A DNA stretch of 64,000 nt from Candidatus Tayloriibacteriota bacterium (GTDB taxonomy: Bacteria > Patescibacteriota > Minisyncoccia > Phycocordibacterales > UBA6065): contig JACRJQ010000002.1 in NCBI GenBank assembly GCA_016215405.1, positions 59,597 through 123,596 on the forward strand, given 5' to 3'. Below, one piece after another: positions 7,563 through 45,311 of this stretch. The translations under genes and the position numbers were made by a program. The notes beneath the pieces were generated by a model, which had not been told where the DNA came from, ran no database searches, and was given only the letters and a program-made list of their open reading frames with translations. The first letter of the stretch is position 1. Each line of letters starts with the position of its first letter.

Positions 7563-9317
7563 TCAGCTCCTCGCCTCCCCTTGCGAGAGCATCTCGCTAA
7601 AGAACAGCGCTTCGTATTGCGGGACCTTGTTCATGAGGTCCCAGTGCTTGCCCACCGCTACGACCTTTCCATCCTTCACGAAGGCGACTTGGTCAGAGAG
7701 GAGCGCCGTCGTATACCGATGCGCGATAGCGAGCACCGTTATACCCCGCTCTTTGGCGATCTTGCGAATCGCTTCGAGGACCTTGGCCTCGTTCTCGTTG
7801 TCGAGCGCGCTCGTCGCCTCGTCGAGGACGAGAAGCTTCGGGTTCGACATGAGGGCACGCGCTATCGCGATCCTCTGACGCTCTCCCCCCGACACCCTGT
7901 CTATGGGCTCGCCGAGGCGATGGCTGTCGCAGAGGTCCCCGAGCCTGATATCCCGCAAGAGCCTCTCTTTCGCTTCGAACGGGACATCCTTTGCGTGACC
8001 GTTAAGCGCATAGTCGATGTTCTCTTCGATGGTCATACTAGAGAAGAACAGAGGCTTTTGCTCAACGAGTCCCACGAACCTCCAGAACGACCTCATGTCG
8101 AGCGTCCTCATGTCTCTGCCGCTTACGAGCACCCGTCCATCCCGAGGCCGGAACGCTCCGATCGCCATGTTGGCGATCGTCGTCTTTCCCGACCCTGACG
8201 GCCCCACGAGCGCCGTGATGCTCCCTGGAGACATCTCCAGGGACACGTTGTCGATCGCGGCCCTTCTCTGAAACGACGAGCCGAGATGCCGGTATGAGGC
8301 GCTTTCGATCTTCAGTCCCTCGAAGGAGTCGATTTTTATCGAGCTCTCCGGAGCCGTCTCGAGGGACGGCGTCTCGAAGAACTCGATGAGGGCCATGATG
8401 CGGGACCATTCTTCCATAAGCGACCTTTGCAGAGCGCCCATCGAGAACATGGAATCGAACGCGGCATACGACCACCCCATCACGACGATGAAGTAGCTCG
8501 GCTCGATCTCCCCCTTTGCCATGAGGCGAAGGGAGATGAAGAGCACGAGCGTCATGCAGGCGAAGCAGAACATGTCGCGCTGCACCAGGGTCCTGGTTAT
8601 ATGGCCGAGCCACAGCTCCTCGCCCTTCCTGGCGTACTTACCGTATTCCGACCTATAGTCGTCGACGGCCCGTTTGCCTTGATTGGTGAGGATGATGAGC
8701 CGCATATTCGCCGCCTTCTCCCAGAATTCTGCGCCGATGCGGTTCTCTTCCCTATCGTATTCCTTTACCCTCTCGAATATGTCCCAGTCTATCTTGATGC
8801 CCACCGCGATGAAGCAGAGGAGGCACAAGAGGACTATGGACGCCACGAGCCAGTGGATGAAGAAGAGGCCGACGGCGGTCACGAAGAGCAAGGAGGCGAT
8901 AGGCAAGATATCCGTGAATATCTTGCTTATCGTCCCTCTTACCGCGAGCTCGCCTTTCTCGATGACCTCCCTGCGCCTCTCGCTGCCTTCGGTCACCTGT
9001 TCGAGCGACAGTCCGCAGAGCTTCTTCAAAACGGCGACGTCGAGCCTCTCAAGGAGGCCGTAGCCGATCCTCTTGAAGTTCTCTTTGGTTTGGACGGACC
9101 TCAAGACGATCGCGAAGAGCGTCGCCGCCGTCGCCATCGCCGCGAGGGCGTAGTCGACCATGCCGGTCTTTGTGAACTCATCGGCGATCCGTCCGTAAAG
9201 ATACGGCGCGGCGATCACCATGAGGGGCATGAGAAGCGTCGCCGCCCCTAATACCAAGAATTGCGGTAGAAACGGCAGGCATATCCTGACGATCTTTCTG
9301 ACGGTGTGTGGCTTCAC
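7563..9317 (-). CDS. ABC transporter, fused permease/ATP-binding (exporter type)
   Basis: Six-TM N-terminal domain, Walker A GPSGSGKTT, signature LSGGERQRIAIARAL, Walker B LLVLDEATSALD. Confidence 0.9.
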   Translation of the reverse strand: MKPHTVRKIVRICLPFLPQFLVLGAATLLMPLMVIAAPYLYGRIADEFTKTGMVDYALAAMATAATLFAIVLRSVQTKENFKRIGYGLLERLDVAVLKKLCGLSLEQVTEGSERRREVIEKGELAVRGTISKIFTDILPIASLLFVTAVGLFFIHWLVASIVLLCLLCFIAVGIKIDWDIFERVKEYDREENRIGAEFWEKAANMRLIILTNQGKRAVDDYRSEYGKYARKGEELWLGHITRTLVQRDMFCFACMTLVLFISLRLMAKGEIEPSYFIVVMGWSYAAFDSMFSMGALQRSLMEEWSRIMALIEFFETPSLETAPESSIKIDSFEGLKIESASYRHLGSSFQRRAAIDNVSLEMSPGSITALVGPSGSGKTTIANMAIGAFRPRDGRVLVSGRDMRTLDMRSFWRFVGLVEQKPLFFSSMTIEENIDYALNGHAKDVPFEAKERLLRDIRLGDLCDSHRLGEPIDRVSGGERQRIAIARALMSNPKLLVLDEATSALDNENEAKVLEAIRKIAKERGITVLAIAHRYTTALLSDQVAFVKDGKVVAVGKHWDLMNKVPQYEALFFSEMLSQGEARS

Positions 9318-18469: not shown

Positions 18470-19867
18470 CTATTCGGATCTCTCGATGCTTATCCTGTCC
18501 ACCGATTCCGGGAAGGAGCGCGACCAGAACGGCCTTATGGATATGTCGGCCTTCTCTATCATAGGGAAACCCTGGAGAGCCGCCGGGATATCGGAGCGGG
18601 AAAGTCCTGCGAGAGCGGCCTTAAGCGACGCCTCTTCATAGAGCCACTCGAACTTAGCGTCGCCCGATAGGCTGAAAGAGACGGAATCGGACGAGCCGGG
18701 GTCGAACTCTCCTTTGGGCGCGAAGGCCAGGGCTTCCAGCTCTTTTACCATGATCGGCTCTCCCTCGTATCCCTGGACCCTCGCCTGCGCGAGAGCCTTG
18801 CTTATCTCTCCTTTATCGAAGAGCGCGAACGAGAGTGTGCCTTCCTTTTTGATGAGCACCTCGTTTCCTGAAGCCTCCTCGGGAAGCGTGACGAACGATA
18901 TCGAATAGGCCTTATCGAAGAAGATCTTGTCGGCAGGGACCTCGGAAGCGGCCTTCTTGAGGAGATTCGCCGATACCTCTGCCTCGATGACGCTCTCAGC
19001 CTTCTTGCGGTCCGCCTCGGAGACGATCTTCCGAGTCCCTACGAACCCGCCCGCGAGAGGGGTCTTCGACCTCGCGTAGAAAGAGGAATAGCGCGGATCG
19101 CCTTTGAATCCAGGGATAGTGAAATCCTTGAGCCCGACGTTGTATTTCTCTCCCGCCTCGTCTGCGACGACGGTCGCCTCGACGCTTCCCGGAGTCGTGC
19201 CTTTCTTTCCTGGGACCGTGACTGAATCAGAGATCCTAAAGATGAGCCCTTCGGTCGTCTCGAAGCGGGTGTTCTTTATGAGGCGCTGCGCCGAGGCGTT
19301 GTAGTCGTTATAGATGATGATGGTTCCGGTAGCTTTCTTGCTGACAGCCTCCTCTCCCGTCGCCTTTACGGGAAGCGAGCCTATCTCCTTGAGAGATACG
19401 GATTCGTATGCGAGGCCCGCACCCGATTTTCGCGCGGTAAGGTCGCCAGAGACGCTCGCGGACACGACTCGCGGCGTAAGGGATAGGACGGCGCTGTGGA
19501 AGAGGTTCGAAACGAAGACCGCGAGGATTAGGACCGCCAAGACGCCGAGGGCGATAAGGCCAGCCTTTATCTGTTTCTTTCGCTTGCTCCGCGACGTTCG
19601 GGAGACCTCGAATTCCTCCCTCACGCTTTTGAGGGTCTCGACGCGGGGATCCGCCTCTTCGACGGGCTCAGGCTCCCTTCTGGCCCGGCTGAGGTCCGGG
19701 AGCGGCGAAGATATCCTGACAGGCACGTCGATCTTCTCCTCGGGCTCCTCCTTTACGACGAGATGCTCCTTCTTCGGGAGCGTTCGCTGCCTGCTCTCGG
19801 GCACGGGGACCTTCCTTATGGAGCGGGATCCCTTGGGCACAATGTCTTGCATCGGGTTTCGTGGCAT
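18470..19867 (-). CDS. hypothetical membrane-anchored protein (single TM, large extracytoplasmic domain)
   Basis: 465 aa; a charged N-terminus, a TM helix around residues 100-120, then a long domain with no recognisable motifs. Confidence 0.55.
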   Translation of the reverse strand: MPRNPMQDIVPKGSRSIRKVPVPESRQRTLPKKEHLVVKEEPEEKIDVPVRISSPLPDLSRARREPEPVEEADPRVETLKSVREEFEVSRTSRSKRKKQIKAGLIALGVLAVLILAVFVSNLFHSAVLSLTPRVVSASVSGDLTARKSGAGLAYESVSLKEIGSLPVKATGEEAVSKKATGTIIIYNDYNASAQRLIKNTRFETTEGLIFRISDSVTVPGKKGTTPGSVEATVVADEAGEKYNVGLKDFTIPGFKGDPRYSSFYARSKTPLAGGFVGTRKIVSEADRKKAESVIEAEVSANLLKKAASEVPADKIFFDKAYSISFVTLPEEASGNEVLIKKEGTLSFALFDKGEISKALAQARVQGYEGEPIMVKELEALAFAPKGEFDPGSSDSVSFSLSGDAKFEWLYEEASLKAALAGLSRSDIPAALQGFPMIEKADISIRPFWSRSFPESVDRISIERSE

Positions 19868-38804: not shown

Positions 38805-38835
38805 GGCCCGCTTCTCTCGAAGCGGGCCGTTTTTT
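38805..38835 (+). terminator. intrinsic terminator
   Basis: GGCCCGCTTC-TCTC-GAAGCGGGCC followed by TTTTTT. Confidence 0.65.
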
Positions 38836-39418
38836 ATCTTCCCTTCCTGCCGAGCCTCTCGATTTTGGCGAGGAGCCTCTGCGCGCGCTCTGGAGGGATA
38901 TTCCTCATCCCCGAGAACCAAGTCTTCCTCACGGGAGCGAAGCCGGAGAATCTCAAGACGCCGCGAACCCAGCTGTTGATGTTTCCTCCGAAGAGCACCC
39001 AGAGCAAAAAAGGATGCGAGTCCGACGTCACGATGACGCGAGCCGAACGGCCCTTGAGCCTGCGGATCCAGCCGGGAATGGGGCCCTTTCTGAAATTAAA
39101 CGCAAACCCGGGCATCCACACGCGGTCGACGAGGCCCTTCATGAGAGCCGGCGTGTCCGACCACCATATCGGGAATACCGAGACGAAATGCTCGCACCAC
39201 TTCACGTCCTCCTGGAATTTTACGAGGTCAGGCTCGTATGGTTGTATGACCTTGTAGCCTCTGTGGAGGATGGGATCGAACTTCATGTCGGATATGCGGG
39301 TCAGGCGCACCTCGTGACCGGCGCTCTCCGCGCCTTTCCTGTAAGCATCCGCGAGAGAGCTCGAGAGCGAATCGCTATCGGGATTGCCGACGAATATGAA
39401 TATCTTCTTGCTCTTCAT
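38834..39418 (-). CDS. flavodoxin-like fold NAD(P)H-dependent oxidoreductase (KefF/MdaB/NQO1-like)
   Basis: 194 aa, KIFIFVGNPDSDSLSSSLADAY. Confidence 0.7.
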   Translation of the reverse strand: MKSKKIFIFVGNPDSDSLSSSLADAYRKGAESAGHEVRLTRISDMKFDPILHRGYKVIQPYEPDLVKFQEDVKWCEHFVSVFPIWWSDTPALMKGLVDRVWMPGFAFNFRKGPIPGWIRRLKGRSARVIVTSDSHPFLLWVLFGGNINSWVRGVLRFSGFAPVRKTWFSGMRNIPPERAQRLLAKIERLGRKGR

Positions 39419-39419
39419 G

Positions 39420-39650
39420 CTATTTGCCCTGCATAAGCCTTGCGAGCTCTTCGCGATGCTTCGTCATTATCTCCATGGTCACCTGCTGCTGGTCCTTGCC
39501 CGATTTAAGCCCCTCTTGGAGCTCTTTCGCGAGGTTCTCGAAGAACGCCGGATTGCGCTCGACGAGGTCGAGGAGCGCCTCCTGCTCATTTTCCGGGACA
39601 TCTTTGAGCTGAGACTTCATGGCCTGCTTCATCAAAAATCTTTTGAGCAT
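39420..39650 (-). CDS. small hypothetical helical protein
   Basis: 76 aa; its stop lies 2 nt from the start of the downstream gene. Confidence 0.4.
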   Translation of the reverse strand: MLKRFLMKQAMKSQLKDVPENEQEALLDLVERNPAFFENLAKELQEGLKSGKDQQQVTMEIMTKHREELARLMQGK

Positions 39651-39674
39651 TTCTTTGTTGTCTTAACGGTGGAG

Positions 39675-40961
39675 CTACTTTATCAAAAAAGGCTTTCGGT
39701 CGCTATAGACCTCCAAAGGGACCCTGTCCCAGCAGGCGACGACATGATCCGCGTAGCCCCAGAGAGCCTCGATCTCTTCGGGACCGACGAACTCTCTCTC
39801 CGACCCATAGAGCGCGGCGAGGATGATGTTGCCGTAAGCGTCGTAGGATCGAGGGACTTCGAACACCTCCTTTGAGCCGTCTCGATTCTCTATCACTATC
39901 TCTTGCTTCGGCTGTATAGAGAACCTCATCCTCTTCGGAAGGCCAGAGATATCCTTGAAGCATATCTCCGCGAACGCCTCCGCGACCTGCATCTTCTTGC
40001 CGGATTCGAGGACAAGAGGTACGCTCTTAAGCTTCCCCGACCTCAAGGAGGTCTCGACATGAAAAGAGGTTTCCGTCTGCGAACCGACCCTCACCCCTCT
40101 CTCGGCCTCATAGCCCTCATACTGCCCCCGCCGCGAGAGGTCGCAGGTGTTCGCGGGAGGGACGAGCCTTTTTATGAAGTCCGCGCGTGCCTCCTGCCAA
40201 GAGCCGGCCGTAGAAAGGTCCGCCCCGAGGGCGGCGAGCGTCTCGAGCATGTGGTTCTGGCCCACGTCCCTAAAGGCGCCGACTCCTTCATACGACGCCC
40301 CCCTGCCGTCTATGCCCTTGGTCTCGAAGAGCCGCACTCGGATCGAGGAAACAGCCTCCGACGACACGAGGTCGCTCATATGAGTCGCTCTCTCGTGGAG
40401 ATCCATGATGGCTCGGACAGTATCTTTGCCTAGATAATGGTCCACTCGCAGTATCTGGTCCGGATCGAGCTTGGAGGCGAGGAGCCTGTCGAGGGCGCAG
40501 GCGCTCTTTTGGTCGGTCCCGAACGGCTTCTCTATCATGATCTTCCCTCTCTTGCCCCGTTCGAGGACGCGCGACCTTACGAGGTCCTTGAACGCCGGCG
40601 AGTAGAGATCGGGAGCCAGAGAGAAATACACCAAAAGCTCAGCGCTCGGGTCTTCGGCGAGCATGCGGTCGAGCCGCGCCTTAAGCTCCTTATAGCCCAC
40701 TCCCGCAGCGATATCCACCTTCGAATAGGAGATCGCCGCTGCGAACGACGGTTCGGCCGGGCGGCCCCTTTGTCCCTCGAAAAAAGACAAAAAGCCCGCG
40801 TCGTCCCACTCTCGCCTCGAGACGGCGACGACCTTCGACGAGGCCCCGATCTCGCCAGCCGAGACCAAGGACTCTATAGCAGGCAATATCTTCTTCGCCG
40901 CGAGGTCTCCCGTCGCGCCGAATAGCACGAATATCATGTCTTTCTTCGAAACGCCTTTCAT
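39675..40961 (-). CDS. zwf: glucose-6-phosphate 1-dehydrogenase
   Basis: FGATGDLAAKKILPA, EKPFG and RVDHYLGK motifs. Confidence 0.85.
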   Translation of the reverse strand: MKGVSKKDMIFVLFGATGDLAAKKILPAIESLVSAGEIGASSKVVAVSRREWDDAGFLSFFEGQRGRPAEPSFAAAISYSKVDIAAGVGYKELKARLDRMLAEDPSAELLVYFSLAPDLYSPAFKDLVRSRVLERGKRGKIMIEKPFGTDQKSACALDRLLASKLDPDQILRVDHYLGKDTVRAIMDLHERATHMSDLVSSEAVSSIRVRLFETKGIDGRGASYEGVGAFRDVGQNHMLETLAALGADLSTAGSWQEARADFIKRLVPPANTCDLSRRGQYEGYEAERGVRVGSQTETSFHVETSLRSGKLKSVPLVLESGKKMQVAEAFAEICFKDISGLPKRMRFSIQPKQEIVIENRDGSKEVFEVPRSYDAYGNIILAALYGSEREFVGPEEIEALWGYADHVVACWDRVPLEVYSDRKPFLIK

Positions 40962-41988: not shown

Positions 41989-43248
41989 CTACCTCGCTTC
42001 GCCCAAATACGGCACAGAAAGGCGTTTCGACGATCCCCTCGGCATAAAAAGAGCTTTCTTCTCCCTTCTCCTCTCGCGATGGAGGGAGCGGGAGCTCGAA
42101 GCCATATGGACGAGGCTCTTCCCGTACTTCTTGTTGATCCTATCGACCGCTTCGAGCACCTTGCCTCCCTTCTCCGCCGCCCGCGCTCCCCCGAAGAGAT
42201 CCTCCTGAACGGCCTCTTCCGGGACCAGGCCGCAGAGGATCGCTCCCGTCGCGCGATAGAGGCGGCCCCGTTCGAATATCTCGTCGAAAGCTTTTTTCGC
42301 CTCCCTTACGATCTGGAACGAGCCGTTCGAGGGCAGAGAGAGCTTTCGCGAAGCGTTCGCATACGAGAGATCCTTGGTCTTGAGATAGACGGAGACGTCC
42401 TTGGCATAGAGGCCGAGCTCGCGGGCCCTCCGGCACGCGCCCTCGAGGTTCTTCGACAGCTCGGAAAATACGTACGAAGAATCGTCGCTCGCCGGAAAGA
42501 ACGTCCTTGTCTTCATGATAGACCTTTGAGGCTCGCTCCCCGTCGCGACTGGATGGACCGACACCCCGTTAAGCTCGAGATGCATCTCTTCTAGAGGCTT
42601 CGAGAAGCTCTCGCTCACCCATGCCGCAGGCTTTGAAGCGAGGTCGAGGGCCGTCGTTATCCCCTTCTTTCGCAGAGATATCGCCGTCGCAGAACCTATG
42701 CCCCAGACCTTATCTACGGGAGTCTTGCCAAGCAAAGAGGTCACATCTTCAGGACATACGATCGTGAGGCCGTCCGGCTTCTTCGATTTAGAAGCCATCT
42801 TCGCGAGGGATTTCGTCGAGGCGAGGCCGAGCGACACGGATATCCCAAGCTCTTTCCCGATCTCGCCCTTTAGGCGCGAGAGCACGGGCAAGGGATCCTT
42901 CTTAAATCCCGGCACGTCCGTGAAATCGGCGAAGCACTCGTCGATGGAATACTCCTCGACGACGTCGGTGTAGCGCCTCACGATATCCATCATCCGCTTC
43001 GAGAACACGGCATACGATTCATAGTCTGAGTCCACCACCGCGACCTGCGGGAACTGTCGGCGTATCTGGAATATGGGCATGGCGCGAGTGATGCCGAGCG
43101 CTTTCGCCTCGTAGGACATCGCCGAGGCGATGCCGCGCTCCTGGCCCGTTACGACCGGACGCCCGCGAAGCCTCGGGTCCTTCGCCGCCTCCACGGAGAC
43201 GAAGAACGCGTCGCCGTCGAGATGCATGATGTATCTTCGTCCCTTCAT
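41989..43248 (-). CDS. dinB: DNA polymerase IV (Y-family translesion polymerase)
   Basis: MHLDGDAFFVSVE and the catalytic SIDECFAD motif. Confidence 0.85.
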   Translation of the reverse strand: MKGRRYIMHLDGDAFFVSVEAAKDPRLRGRPVVTGQERGIASAMSYEAKALGITRAMPIFQIRRQFPQVAVVDSDYESYAVFSKRMMDIVRRYTDVVEEYSIDECFADFTDVPGFKKDPLPVLSRLKGEIGKELGISVSLGLASTKSLAKMASKSKKPDGLTIVCPEDVTSLLGKTPVDKVWGIGSATAISLRKKGITTALDLASKPAAWVSESFSKPLEEMHLELNGVSVHPVATGSEPQRSIMKTRTFFPASDDSSYVFSELSKNLEGACRRARELGLYAKDVSVYLKTKDLSYANASRKLSLPSNGSFQIVREAKKAFDEIFERGRLYRATGAILCGLVPEEAVQEDLFGGARAAEKGGKVLEAVDRINKKYGKSLVHMASSSRSLHRERRREKKALFMPRGSSKRLSVPYLGEAR

Positions 43249-43541
43249 GTATATTTGCGTATGACTGCGATCACTACCGCCTCGACTTTCGCGCCCTGCT
43301 TTGAGAGAGAGTCGAAACGGACCATCTTAAACTCTCCGTCGTCTACGGCGATCACTATATCCATCTCCTTCGGCGTCTTTGACCTATCGACGATGACGAG
43401 GTCGCCTTCGAGTATCCCGGCATCGCGCATCGAATCGGTCGCGGCGCGAAGCATAAAGGAAGCCTCCTTGTTCTCAACAAGATAATCGTCTAGAGACATG
43501 GTATCGAGAGCGCCGTCTTCGTCGTGTGTGCGAAAACCCAT
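43245..43541 (-). CDS. UmuD/LexA-like S24 peptidase domain protein
   Basis: 98 aa with the Ser (AATDSMRDAGI) / Lys (FKMVRF) dyad; there is a 4-nt ATGA overlap with dinB. Confidence 0.72.
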   Translation of the reverse strand: MGFRTHDEDGALDTMSLDDYLVENKEASFMLRAATDSMRDAGILEGDLVIVDRSKTPKEMDIVIAVDDGEFKMVRFDSLSKQGAKVEAVVIAVIRKYT

Positions 43542-43597
43542 GCGTGAAGTATAAGTGAACCAGAGTTCACTTACAAGGATGGGCTCGCTGCTCAGGG

Positions 43598-43668
43598 TGG
43601 ACCTAGGGGGAATCGAACCCCCGCCTCGTCAATGCGAATGACGCGTCGTACCACTAGACTATAGGCCC
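43598..43668 (-). tRNA. tRNA-Ala (anticodon CGC)
   Basis: Cloverleaf with acceptor GGGCCUA/UAGGUCC containing a G3:U70 pair; anticodon loop UUCGCAU. Confidence 0.75.
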
Positions 43669-43689
43669 GTTAAGGGACAGTATCCCTTG

Positions 43690-43763
43690 TGCGCCCTGGA
43701 AGATTCGGACTTCCGGCCTCTCGCGTGTGAAGCGAGCGCTCTGACCGACTGAGCTAAGGACGC
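43690..43763 (-). tRNA. tRNA-Val (anticodon CAC)
   Basis: Acceptor GCGUCCU/AGGGCGC; anticodon loop UUCACAC. Confidence 0.75.
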
Positions 43764-43769
43764 TCTAAG

Positions 43770-43840
43770 TGGACCTACCGGGAATCGAACCCGGCACTCA
43801 TCCATGCCATGGATGCGTATTACCGATATACTATAGGCCC
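43770..43840 (-). tRNA. tRNA-Ala (anticodon GGC)
   Basis: The acceptor again has G3:U70; anticodon loop AUGGCAU. Confidence 0.75.
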
Positions 43841-43912
43841 TCGCGGGATATATCTTACTACAAAGTTTGATAATTTGAAGCTTTTAAGCTATATTATCGC
43901 AGTCAGAAAAGC

Positions 43913-43985
43913 GGGCCCTTAGCTCATCTGGTAGAGCACCTCATTTGCAATGAGGGGGTGGCAGGTTCGAGTCCTGTAGGGTCCA
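43913..43985 (+). tRNA. tRNA-Ala (anticodon TGC)
   Basis: GGGCCCU acceptor with G3:U70; anticodon loop UUUGCAA; T-loop TTCGAGT. Confidence 0.8.
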
Positions 43986-43993
43986 CAAAACAA

Positions 43994-44165: not shown

Positions 44166-44651
44166 CTACTCGCATGCGACTTCGTTCGCCTCGAGGTTCG
44201 CTGTGACTATCCTGGCCGCACCGCCCGAATCTATGCACCACATAAGGGGCGCTCCCGAGGAGGTGCCCTTAAGAGGCGTCTCTGCGGCATAATTCGAGCC
44301 GTTTTCGTGGCATGTCACGATATCGAACGCCCCTGCGGTCGAGAGGGATATGTTGAGAGGCTGCGTCGTCGTGCCCCACGCCTCCTGAGCCTTGAGGAGA
44401 TTATATTCAAGGGTCTTCCCGCCGTTAGGCGAGGGTATCGATCCGCAGACGCCGGCATAGGAATTCCCGTTGTCTCCGTAATAGAGCTCGGCCGCCGTGC
44501 GTGCGTCATGCATATTGGACTTTATGAGGGCGTCCGTCCCCTTCTGCTTGCTCGAAGCTATGTTGCCGAGGACGATCGAAGATATGATGCCTATGATCGC
44601 GATCGATATGAGGAGCTCGACAAGGGTAAATCCTTTCCTAGAGTAGGTCAT
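44166..44651 (-). CDS. type IV pilin / pseudopilin (prepilin with class III signal)
   Basis: The ORF-track 44166..45188 extends antisense into the cupin gene; it was trimmed to MTYSRKG|FTLVELLISIAIIGIISS (a prepilin peptidase site). A C-terminal Cys pair (WCIDSGG...VACE) is present. Confidence 0.75.
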   Translation of the reverse strand: MTYSRKGFTLVELLISIAIIGIISSIVLGNIASSKQKGTDALIKSNMHDARTAAELYYGDNGNSYAGVCGSIPSPNGGKTLEYNLLKAQEAWGTTTQPLNISLSTAGAFDIVTCHENGSNYAAETPLKGTSSGAPLMWCIDSGGAARIVTANLEANEVACE

Positions 44652-44741
44652 TTCACAATCGTACCAGCTCTCTCGATATTCGCGAAAGCCGTTATCCCCG
44701 CAGCCACGCGACCGGAACGCGGAAAATGCTAGAATACAGCC

Positions 44742-45311
44742 ATGATAAAGCCATTCGCAGAGAGAGCGCACGACAAGATGCGGGAGGTCCTCATGGATCC
44801 CGACGCCCAAGGCCCCGAGACCCACTACTACATGATCCGAGGCGGCAAAGACAAAAGGAACATAACCGTCTGGGAGCCCGGCACTGTCGCCGGAGAGTAC
44901 ATAAAATCCTACGGCCACTATCATGTAGGCAAGCTCGACGAGACGTATACGATACTCGCAGGCGAAGGATACGTCCTCATGCAGACGAGGAAGGCCGGAA
45001 GCGACGGGTCCCCTATCGACGACGAGATCGACTCTTTCAAGGCGGTAAAGGTAAAGGCCGGAGACTCTGTATTCATCCCGTCGGGGGCGGGGCATCTCGC
45101 CGTAAATACCGGAAACACCTGGCTCGTCACCTCGGACGACAGTCCTGTCGATTTCGGAGAGAAAAACGCGGCGTCCCTGCCCGGACATGCCGATTACGAG
45201 CCTTTCAAGAGGCTCCGCGGAGCGGCATATTACGTCATCGACAGAGATGGCAAACCGGAGTTCGTAAAGAACCCTCAGTATAGGAACATCCCTCCCGTAG
45301 AGCTCTCTTAG
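44742..45311 (+). CDS. cupin-type glucose-6-phosphate isomerase (archaeal-type cPGI)
   Basis: 189 aa; TVWEPG...GHYHV...GE...GAGHLAVNTG matches the metal-binding cupin PGI of Thermococcales; an extended -10 (TGcTAGAAT) lies 11 nt before the ATG. Confidence 0.65.
   Translation: MIKPFAERAHDKMREVLMDPDAQGPETHYYMIRGGKDKRNITVWEPGTVAGEYIKSYGHYHVGKLDETYTILAGEGYVLMQTRKAGSDGSPIDDEIDSFKAVKVKAGDSVFIPSGAGHLAVNTGNTWLVTSDDSPVDFGEKNAASLPGHADYEPFKRLRGAAYYVIDRDGKPEFVKNPQYRNIPPVELS

Follow-up and report, generated by a model that had tools for sequence, protein, structure and literature searches.

An S24 protein predicted to be encoded in its cleaved form beside a Y-family DNA polymerase in a Paceibacterota genome

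S24 genes beside Y-family polymerases are an ordinary arrangement, as in umuDC, and a LexA-like ancestor is presumed for UmuD; the HumD protein of phage P1 reportedly complements UmuD' (work ascribed to McLenigan et al. in 1999), and the SOS network of Patescibacteria is said to have been analysed by Sanchez-Osuna, Barbe and Erill in 2017. Considered here is a two-gene operon on the reverse strand of a 64,000-nucleotide stretch (hereafter the window) of contig JACRJQ010000002.1 (GenBank assembly GCA_016215405.1), from Candidatus Tayloriibacteriota bacterium, a member of the Paceibacterota (candidate phyla radiation, CPR), candidate-phyla bacteria with tiny genomes. A 98-residue S24-fold protein (43245–43541) is encoded directly upstream of a 419-residue Y-family DNA polymerase (41989–43248). 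Judged by its alignments and its gene context, the small gene is the lexA of a lexA–polY operon reduced to its post-cleavage fragment, not a canonical umuD, and its product is encoded already in the ‘cleaved’ form, like HumD.

HumD is a 129-residue phage gene product with no adjacent polymerase, which retains a β-hairpin and the catalytic Lys and acts together with the UmuC of its host; the P1 record annotates an upstream LexA site and carries the statement ‘functionally complements E. coli UmuD'’. HumD starts MGFPSPAADY and the window protein MGFRTHDEDG, both aligning at UmuD Gly25, whereas the window protein, at 98 residues, is chromosomal, has neither hairpin nor Lys, shares an operon with its own polymerase and appears to be of local CPR lexA descent. 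By these comparisons it is an analogue of HumD by design and no member of the HumD family, the pre-cleaved form having most likely been derived independently from the local lexA.

E. coli UmuD'/Pol V (UmuD'2C–RecA) shares with the window an S24 β-barrel, a small gene directly upstream of a Y-family polymerase and a free arm from the cleavage-site Gly, and UmuC resembles the window polymerase in its clamp motif, its RecA N-terminus-like (RecA-NT/DUF4113-like) segment and its C-terminal tail. The 24-residue propeptide, the cleavage site and Lys97 of E. coli UmuD are, in contrast, absent from the window protein, which would therefore have no activation step dependent on RecA*. Acinetobacter UmuDAb keeps self-cleavage and needs a corepressor, DdrR; the window presents the opposite case, in which a repressor-type gene has lost its DNA-binding domain. 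Bacillus subtilis YqjX/YolD (with YqjW/UvrX) are small proteins beside a RecA-NT-bearing Y-family polymerase, with an arm that inserts and no proteolytic activation (PMC12926913); unlike the window protein, a bona fide LexA/UmuD homologue, they show no sequence homology to the S24 family and are predicted monomers. The LexA proteins of other Paceibacterota (GAAC-N4-GTTC class) have the same locus, promoter, autoregulatory palindrome and C-terminal strand as the window gene, whose product differs in having no winged helix-turn-helix (HTH) domain, Ala-Gly site, catalytic Lys or hairpin, and is predicted neither to bind DNA nor to sense RecA* by self-cleavage. No description was found of a cellular, LexA-derived, hairpin-less, catalytically decayed version in the lexA slot with intermediates, the 2017 study of Sanchez-Osuna et al. 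lying outside that comparison.

The small S24 protein and its cleavage site

The product of the small gene corresponds to the LexA C-terminal domain alone, starting at the cleavage-site Gly (M1-G2-F3). Peptidase_S24 (Pfam accession: PF00717) is matched over residues 8–76 (E = 8.7e-11; 42 bits against a cutoff of 23.3), with no other notable Pfam match, and the N-terminal winged-HTH DNA-binding domain is absent. Among NCBIfam models the UmuD model (NF007621) ranks first, below cutoff (71.9 bits against 110; E = 4e-20), with residues 2–78 aligned to profile positions 3–79 of 115; the HumD model (NF051876) is second (49.9 bits against 120; profile positions 1–78 on residues 1–79), and LexA (TIGR00498) third (48.3 bits, below cutoff), matched over profile positions 99–170 of 203 only. 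Solved UmuD/UmuD' structures are found by sequence at E = 1.6e-10. An AlphaFold (AF2) model has a predicted local distance difference test (pLDDT) score of 77.7, with residues 31–70 at 86–90 and later residues at 81–83, and its best Foldseek match is UmuD' (1ay9; template modelling score 0.70, E = 1e-5), followed by the C-domains of Mycobacterium tuberculosis and E. coli LexA. An earlier note on this DNA, made from the sequence alone, had described an open reading frame (ORF) carrying only the LexA/UmuD C-terminal fold, and Pfam, NCBIfam and AlphaFold/Foldseek bear this out, with no DNA-binding domain.

In BLASTP comparisons the closest protein is a CPR LexA C-domain (81 bits, 47% identity), followed by E. 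coli UmuD (55 bits), P1 HumD (53 bits) and E. coli LexA (45 bits); identity to CPR LexA C-domains is 42–47%, and to P1 HumD 34%. Alignment to UmuD and LexA further places a deletion at one β-hairpin (UmuD residues ∼101–120), where the window protein has a 9-residue linker instead.

The phmmer alignment to E. coli UmuD is gapless, such that residue i of the window protein corresponds to UmuD residue i+23. At the scissile pair, Met1 falls on Cys24 and Gly2 on Gly25 (Met1 as P1, Gly2 as P1'); since the ORF begins at the P1' Gly and no in-frame start lies upstream of it, the 98-residue protein has no cleavage site, which answers the remark of the earlier note that the self-cleavage site was unclear. 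The note had also proposed a Ser-Lys dyad, with the Ser in AATDSMRDAG and the Lys in FKMVRF. Both motifs are present in the translated ORF, and Ser37 (codon 43431–43433, reverse strand) is aligned with the nucleophile (UmuD Ser60, LexA S119), but the position of the general-base Lys (UmuD K97, LexA K156) is taken by Val74 (codon 43320–43322, reverse strand), while K72 aligns with UmuD Thr95, two residues before that position, and is not conserved. On proper alignment the dyad is therefore absent, the general-base Lys being missing.

A search of 5.8 billion proteins recovered 23 further proteins of 85–100 residues and 55–75% identity, nearly all starting MGFRT; combined with the loci from genomes and metagenomes described below, the short family comprises 34 distinct sequences. 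Within it the Ser column holds S in 20, A in 8, H in 4 and G in 2 members, and the Lys column K in 4, R in 13, D in 6, A in 4 and G in 4, with other residues in the remainder, whereas all 186 full-length CPR LexAs have the Ala-Gly site as well as both catalytic residues; it follows that selection no longer maintains catalysis in the short family. By comparison, 27 of the 34 have G and 6 have A in the P1' column, the aligned proteins starting with the pattern M[GA]FRT, and throughout the family Met1 is followed by Gly, Ala, Ser or Pro. Given the specificity of methionine aminopeptidase, removal of Met1 is expected, and the mature N-terminus would be the same as that of autocleaved LexA or UmuD'.

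The short family is rare, forming ∼24 clusters at 90% identity where the full-length family forms at least 7949, and with the short type in 7 of 185,579 species genomes among the GTDB loci listed. Among 1.84 billion representatives at 50% identity, at least 14 further mini S24 proteins of 93–114 residues without HTH and hairpin were found. Such mini proteins beyond the MGFRT family (P0203–P0349) have variably lost the catalytic residues; some have the starts MGFATP, MGFPIE or MPFRVH, and others keep a 10–20-residue propeptide with an Ala-Gly site.

The lexA slot, its operator and its intermediates

The scan of GTDB, with one genome per species, lists 80 loci, with 19 weaker matches beyond them; all 80 are from Patescibacteria, 7 being of the short type and 73 carrying a full-length LexA-like gene (∼188–193 residues). 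Of the 80 loci listed, 77 (70 of the 73 with a full-length gene) have an ortholog of the window polymerase downstream in the same orientation, and its identity to the window polymerase is 58–65% beside short genes and 40–47% beside full-length ones. In the full-length proteins the N-domain aligns to the LexA profile (in the example L017:5755-6342, profile positions 25–201 are matched), followed by the site ...VEA|GFPSPAEEE..., GDSM, TMKYL and the C-terminal strand of the short family, IEAVVTAVVRKY.

Both gene types also share their promoter. In the window, the promoter scan returns TTGTAA-17-TATACT (9 of 12 matches), with a −35-like hexamer TTGTAA at 43571–43576 and a −10-like hexamer TATACT at 43548–43553 (both reverse strand), the latter ending 6 nucleotides before the ATG; the spacer holds a perfect 9+4+9 palindrome, TAAGTGAAC-N4-GTTCACTTA (43552–43573; 22 bp, 100% complementarity in the inverted-repeat finder), a putative LexA-type operator with the core GTGAAC-N4-GTTCAC at 43555–43570. 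This core matches the classical Gram-positive-type LexA box GAAC-N4-GTTC (‘Cheo box’). The same order, namely a TTGACA-like −35, GTGAAC-N4-GTTCAC, a TATACT-like −10 and the ATG, is common to ∼50 full-length genes and every short gene, with the TTGACA-like hexamer at the same position in ∼50 lexA loci and all short-type loci; the operator core occurs with zero mismatches, fixed 13–14 nucleotides from the ATG, in 14 of 14 short-type loci and ∼45 full-length lexA loci, the N4 spacer varying. Most of the remaining full-length loci have TAGAAC-N4-GTTCTA at the same place.

Further loci narrow the distance between the two types. The metagenome scan added six short-type loci and L087 (L087:5228-5617), a 108-residue protein starting MAELQLLGIVEA|GFPTS..., in which an 11-residue propeptide, the Ala-Gly pair and the Ser are kept, and the Lys and the hairpin are lost. 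L164/P0038 (L164:5966-6348; 115 residues, starting MPFRERTEEE) keeps the hairpin and the Lys, with Arg replacing the Ser and the polymerase 2 nucleotides downstream. Both intermediates have the same operator upstream and the polymerase directly next to them, and in a neighbour-joining tree the polymerases of the short-type loci form one clade with that of L087 as sister. The shared slot, promoter and operator, the orthologous polymerase and the closest similarity to CPR LexA C-domains together argue that the small gene derives from the lexA of a lexA–polY operon. Read in this way, one clade would preserve a natural series for the conversion of LexA to UmuD: a full repressor; a form with the HTH domain lost and the cleavage site kept; and a form starting at the cleavage site with decaying catalytic residues, all three stages having the same operator upstream and the same polymerase downstream. 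The ‘pre-activated UmuD'’ solution known from P1 HumD would then have arisen in cellular genomes too, independently.

The two genes of the window overlap by ATGA at 43245–43248 (TCAT on the forward strand), as the earlier note had stated, an arrangement indicative of translational coupling; homologues align from polymerase residue 4–5, which supports the overlapping start. The polymerase adjoins the small gene in all short-type loci whose contig reaches past it, and 11 of the 13 short-type loci show an overlap or a gap of at most 2 nucleotides, compared with 15 of 70 full-length-lexA loci (Fisher p = 2e-5, the loci not being phylogenetically independent); in the latter, those 15 have gaps of 1–2 nucleotides, none overlap, and the median gap is 134 nucleotides. 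The proposal of a umuD–dinB-type translesion cassette in the earlier note thus stands as regards a damage-tolerance cassette with tight coupling to its polymerase, and falls as regards umuD, as the small gene is not canonical and sits in the lexA slot with a lexA promoter and operator.

A repressor to act on the operator was sought in several ways. As the earlier note had maintained, no full-length LexA was found in the 64 kb: tblastn with seven CPR LexAs matched only the short gene, and a weak match to the LexA N-domain at 18809–18958 (E = 0.17) was rejected because that strand has no genuine ORF there. When 12 CPR LexAs were used for a profile search, none of the best 120 of at least 7949 clusters was traceable to this metagenome-assembled genome, and among the GTDB loci listed no accession prefix is shared between the seven short-type assemblies and the 73 lexA loci. 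The groups P0026 and P0036, the closest full-length relatives by identity, were rejected as the missing repressor; they lie in lexA–polY loci, and the neighbourhood of at least P0036 (transposase/DDE genes, a phage-type integrase, oxidoreductases and a major facilitator superfamily transporter) is unlike other short-type or lexA loci. No second GTGAAC-N4-GTTCAC site (at most 2 mismatches) occurs in the window, so that the operator of the operon is the only one; another match, to GAAC-N4-GTTC at 40743, was rejected as an SOS box, being inside a gene and at chance level.

Several features of the clade's lexA loci may be recorded alongside. Two operator classes occur in their promoters, GTGAAC-N4-GTTCAC and TAGAAC-N4-GTTCTA (sometimes TAGTAC..GTACTA), always between −35 and −10. 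In L035:5736-8507, lexA–polY precedes another perfect palindrome (7688) and another full-length lexA (7944–8507); lexA duplication therefore occurs in the clade, a possible template for duplication and specialisation. Nine full-length loci (L016, L019, L025–L027, L036, L039, L062 and L064) carry between lexA and polY a gene of up to ∼480–515 residues, represented in some by ORFs of ∼200–270 residues, which by eye resembles a DnaQ-type exonuclease fused to a GIY-YIG (Cho/UvrC-like) nuclease, and eight other loci have an ORF of ∼130–165 residues without assigned function between lexA and the polymerase.

Possible roles of the small protein

On balance, the small protein is probably a UmuD'/HumD-like subunit without catalytic activity, synthesised in step with its polymerase and with the operator as its sole control. 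The mature protein could not, and need not, cleave itself; it would dimerise through its conserved C-terminal strand and serve the co-translated Y-family polymerase as an accessory or manager subunit, with its conserved N-terminal arm inserted into the polymerase like the UmuD' arm, while the conserved C-terminal tail of the polymerase would dock on the β-barrel of the S24 subunit. Control would be transcriptional and not proteolytic, through binding of a LexA-type repressor encoded elsewhere to the operator within the promoter; error-prone synthesis would then be governed by transcription alone, without the checkpoint of RecA*-dependent cleavage. A published model of Pol V has the arm of UmuD' inserted into the polymerase and one UmuD' bound by the C-terminal tail of UmuC (PMC12926913). 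The S24-family repressor UmuDAb dimerises via the ∼12 residues at its C-terminus (PMC11332147), in keeping with the conserved C-terminal strand of the short family.

Conservation in the short family is highest where such contacts are predicted. The N-terminal arm and first helix (residues 1–32; 43446–43541, reverse strand) are, with the C-terminal strand, its best-conserved part: mean top-residue frequency is 0.84 over residues 1–32 and 0.88 in the C-terminal strand, against 0.67 in the former active-site core and 0.32 in the linker replacing the hairpin. The strand, VEAVVxAVIRKY, is nearly identical between the short family and CPR LexA.

The second gene of the operon (41989–43248, reverse strand) encodes a Y-family DNA polymerase; it has the catalytic motifs DGD and SIDE and a core nearest to Pol IV/DinB models, and its assignment in the earlier note is secured by the domains IMS (PF00817, 1.9e-42), IMS_C (PF11799, 9.9e-16) and IMS_HHH (PF11798, 1.1e-5). 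Among NCBIfam models, those of Pol IV give ∼220 bits and UmuC 176 bits, all below cutoffs, and the nearest solved structures in the PDB are of DinB type. Its C-terminus, judged from motifs, has a UmuC-like layout consisting of a clamp motif, a sub-threshold DUF4113-like segment and a conserved tail. QEDLF (residues 348–352; 42193–42207, reverse strand) is a β-clamp-binding-type QxxLF motif, in which, across 21 related polymerases, D never varies and conservation of Q, L and F is 90% or more; the QxxLF clamp-binding consensus is described in PMC12926913. It is followed by VLEAVDRINKKYGKSLVHMASS (residues 364–385; 42094–42159, reverse strand), tentatively DUF4113-like and RecA-NT-like, with a sub-threshold Pfam match (E = 0.0017). 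For this segment (VDRINKKYGKSLVHMASS), DUF4113 matches 9 of the 21 relatives at E ≤ 0.01, below the gathering score, and by eye it has been likened to the RecA N-terminus IEKQFGKGSIM (the ‘RecA-NT’ motif of UmuC-type polymerases); a RecA match was sought by profile search of the PDB with the polymerase C-termini and was not found. The C-terminal tail RLSVPYLGEAR (41992–42024, reverse strand) is, by analogy with UmuC, a candidate docking site for the S24 subunit, and its motif R(R/K)LxIPxLGEV is conserved in polymerases beside short and full-length genes alike.

Several observations weigh against the role of polymerase subunit. The polymerase core scores higher with Pol IV/DinB models than with UmuC, and its DUF4113/RecA-NT-like segment is sub-threshold; the small protein itself is under the NCBIfam cutoffs of both UmuD (71.9 against 110 bits) and HumD (49.9 against 120 bits). 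Tight junctions are also present in 15 of the 70 full-length-lexA loci, so that coupling, though enriched in the short type, is shared by some full-length loci. With its hairpin deleted and its arm altered (FRTHD and not FPSPA), the small protein could present a different partner surface; and no full-length LexA that might be the presumed repressor of the operator was found in the 64 kb or within 6–10 kb of any short-type locus.

A different function for the same domain, unlikely yet the most substantial of the competing accounts, is that of a decoy modulating the SOS response: a headless LexA C-domain could heterodimerise with LexA, giving a dimer with one DNA-binding domain, or occupy RecA* uncleaved, in either case tuning SOS induction or shut-off. 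The near-identity of the C-terminal strand in the short family and CPR LexA would suit heterodimers, as would UmuDAb dimerisation through the C-terminal ∼12 residues (PMC11332147); the gene itself lies behind a LexA-type operator, as is usual for feedback modulators, and catalytic residues would be dispensable. This account, however, leaves unexplained the constant position upstream of a polymerase, usually with overlap, and the high conservation of the free N-terminal arm from the cleavage-site Gly; no full-length LexA was found in the window or within 6–10 kb of any short-type locus, and HumD, the closest analogue in design, acts with a polymerase.

That the small gene is a decaying remnant, a functionless truncated lexA pseudogene fragment kept because its promoter and translation drive the polymerase, is very improbable, despite the loss of HTH domain, β-hairpin and catalytic residues and the poor conservation of the linker standing in for the hairpin. 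All 34 short-family members have kept an intact reading frame; median pS is 0.74 (saturated) against a pN of 0.28, with a median dN/dS of 0.14 and a value of 0.025 for the close pair L085/L086, and the small gene is under strong purifying selection. The alignment of the short family has 21 invariant columns (including M1, F3, R4, T5, E8, A11 and D18), the core is confidently modelled by AlphaFold, and diverse mini relatives without HTH and hairpin exist, several of them beginning at the Gly of the cleavage site. An active UmuD-type Ser-Lys autopeptidase, activating a umuD–dinB cassette by RecA-dependent cleavage, is the least probable of all and is excluded on alignment, for despite the S24 homology, a Ser37 at the nucleophile position and a K72 on the same strand two residues before the canonical Lys, the ORF begins at the P1' Gly with no cleavage site, the general-base position is Val, only 4 of 34 relatives have K in the K72 column, and in 14 of the 34 the Ser is replaced by A, H or G.

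A wider and more tentative proposal, with the chances rather against it, is that the SOS repressor of Paceibacterota may be the pro-form of a polymerase small subunit, RecA*-induced cleavage both derepressing the operon and releasing a UmuD'-like fragment. It is raised because full-length LexA has a GFPSPA arm and a C-domain no less UmuD-like than LexA-like, and because the polymerase tail is the same beside either gene type: in the full-length proteins (L008–L080) the GFPSPA arm, right after the Ala-Gly, is identical to that of E. coli UmuD, the C-domain is 42% identical to UmuD, and the NCBIfam scores are just under the cutoffs for UmuD (108.9 against 110) and LexA (105.5 against 110.95). 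By these features, the full-length Paceibacterota LexAs look like LexA/UmuD hybrids, reminiscent of Acinetobacter UmuDAb. Were this so, the lineage of the window would be an end state making only the fragment, its repressor moved to a second lexA copy or lost. The idea thereby suggested for minimal-genome bacteria is that a cleaved LexA C-fragment may be a polymerase subunit; and, there being no experimental multisubunit structure of Y-family mutasomes (PMC12926913), a compact natural mini-UmuD' of 98 residues would be of use in structural work on these complexes.

Transcript start and flanking genes

No Shine-Dalgarno sequence is present in TCACGC, ahead of the small gene, and this, together with a −10 hexamer ending 6 nucleotides before the ATG and the constant spacing of 13–14 nucleotides between palindrome and ATG, suggests a leaderless or near-leaderless operon mRNA. 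Among the clade's lexA loci (L008–L080, 60 nucleotides upstream scanned), the ATG in most cases lies 6–8 nucleotides past the −10 hexamer, which suggests leaderless lexA mRNAs there too.

Directly upstream of the promoter lie four tRNA genes (43596–43986), Ala-CGC, Val-CAC and Ala-GGC on the reverse strand and Ala-UGC on the forward strand; the nearest ends 20 nucleotides before the −35, and read-through from the tRNA cluster into the operon is therefore possible. Beyond them, a 340-residue ORF (44166–45188, reverse strand) contains an internal prepilin-like signal (KGFTLVELLISIAIIG...), the real gene probably encoding a much shorter type IV pilin-like protein from an internal Met start. On the other side of the operon, the genes downstream of the polymerase (38834–40961: small ORFs, glucose-6-phosphate dehydrogenase and a flavodoxin-like flavin mononucleotide (FMN) reductase) are syntenic with L165:12429-14280, the locus of the relative P0018, and the cassette is therefore taken to be chromosomal and not on a mobile element; the upstream side of L165, with DUF4238, DUF2726 and resolvase genes, is unlike that of the window.

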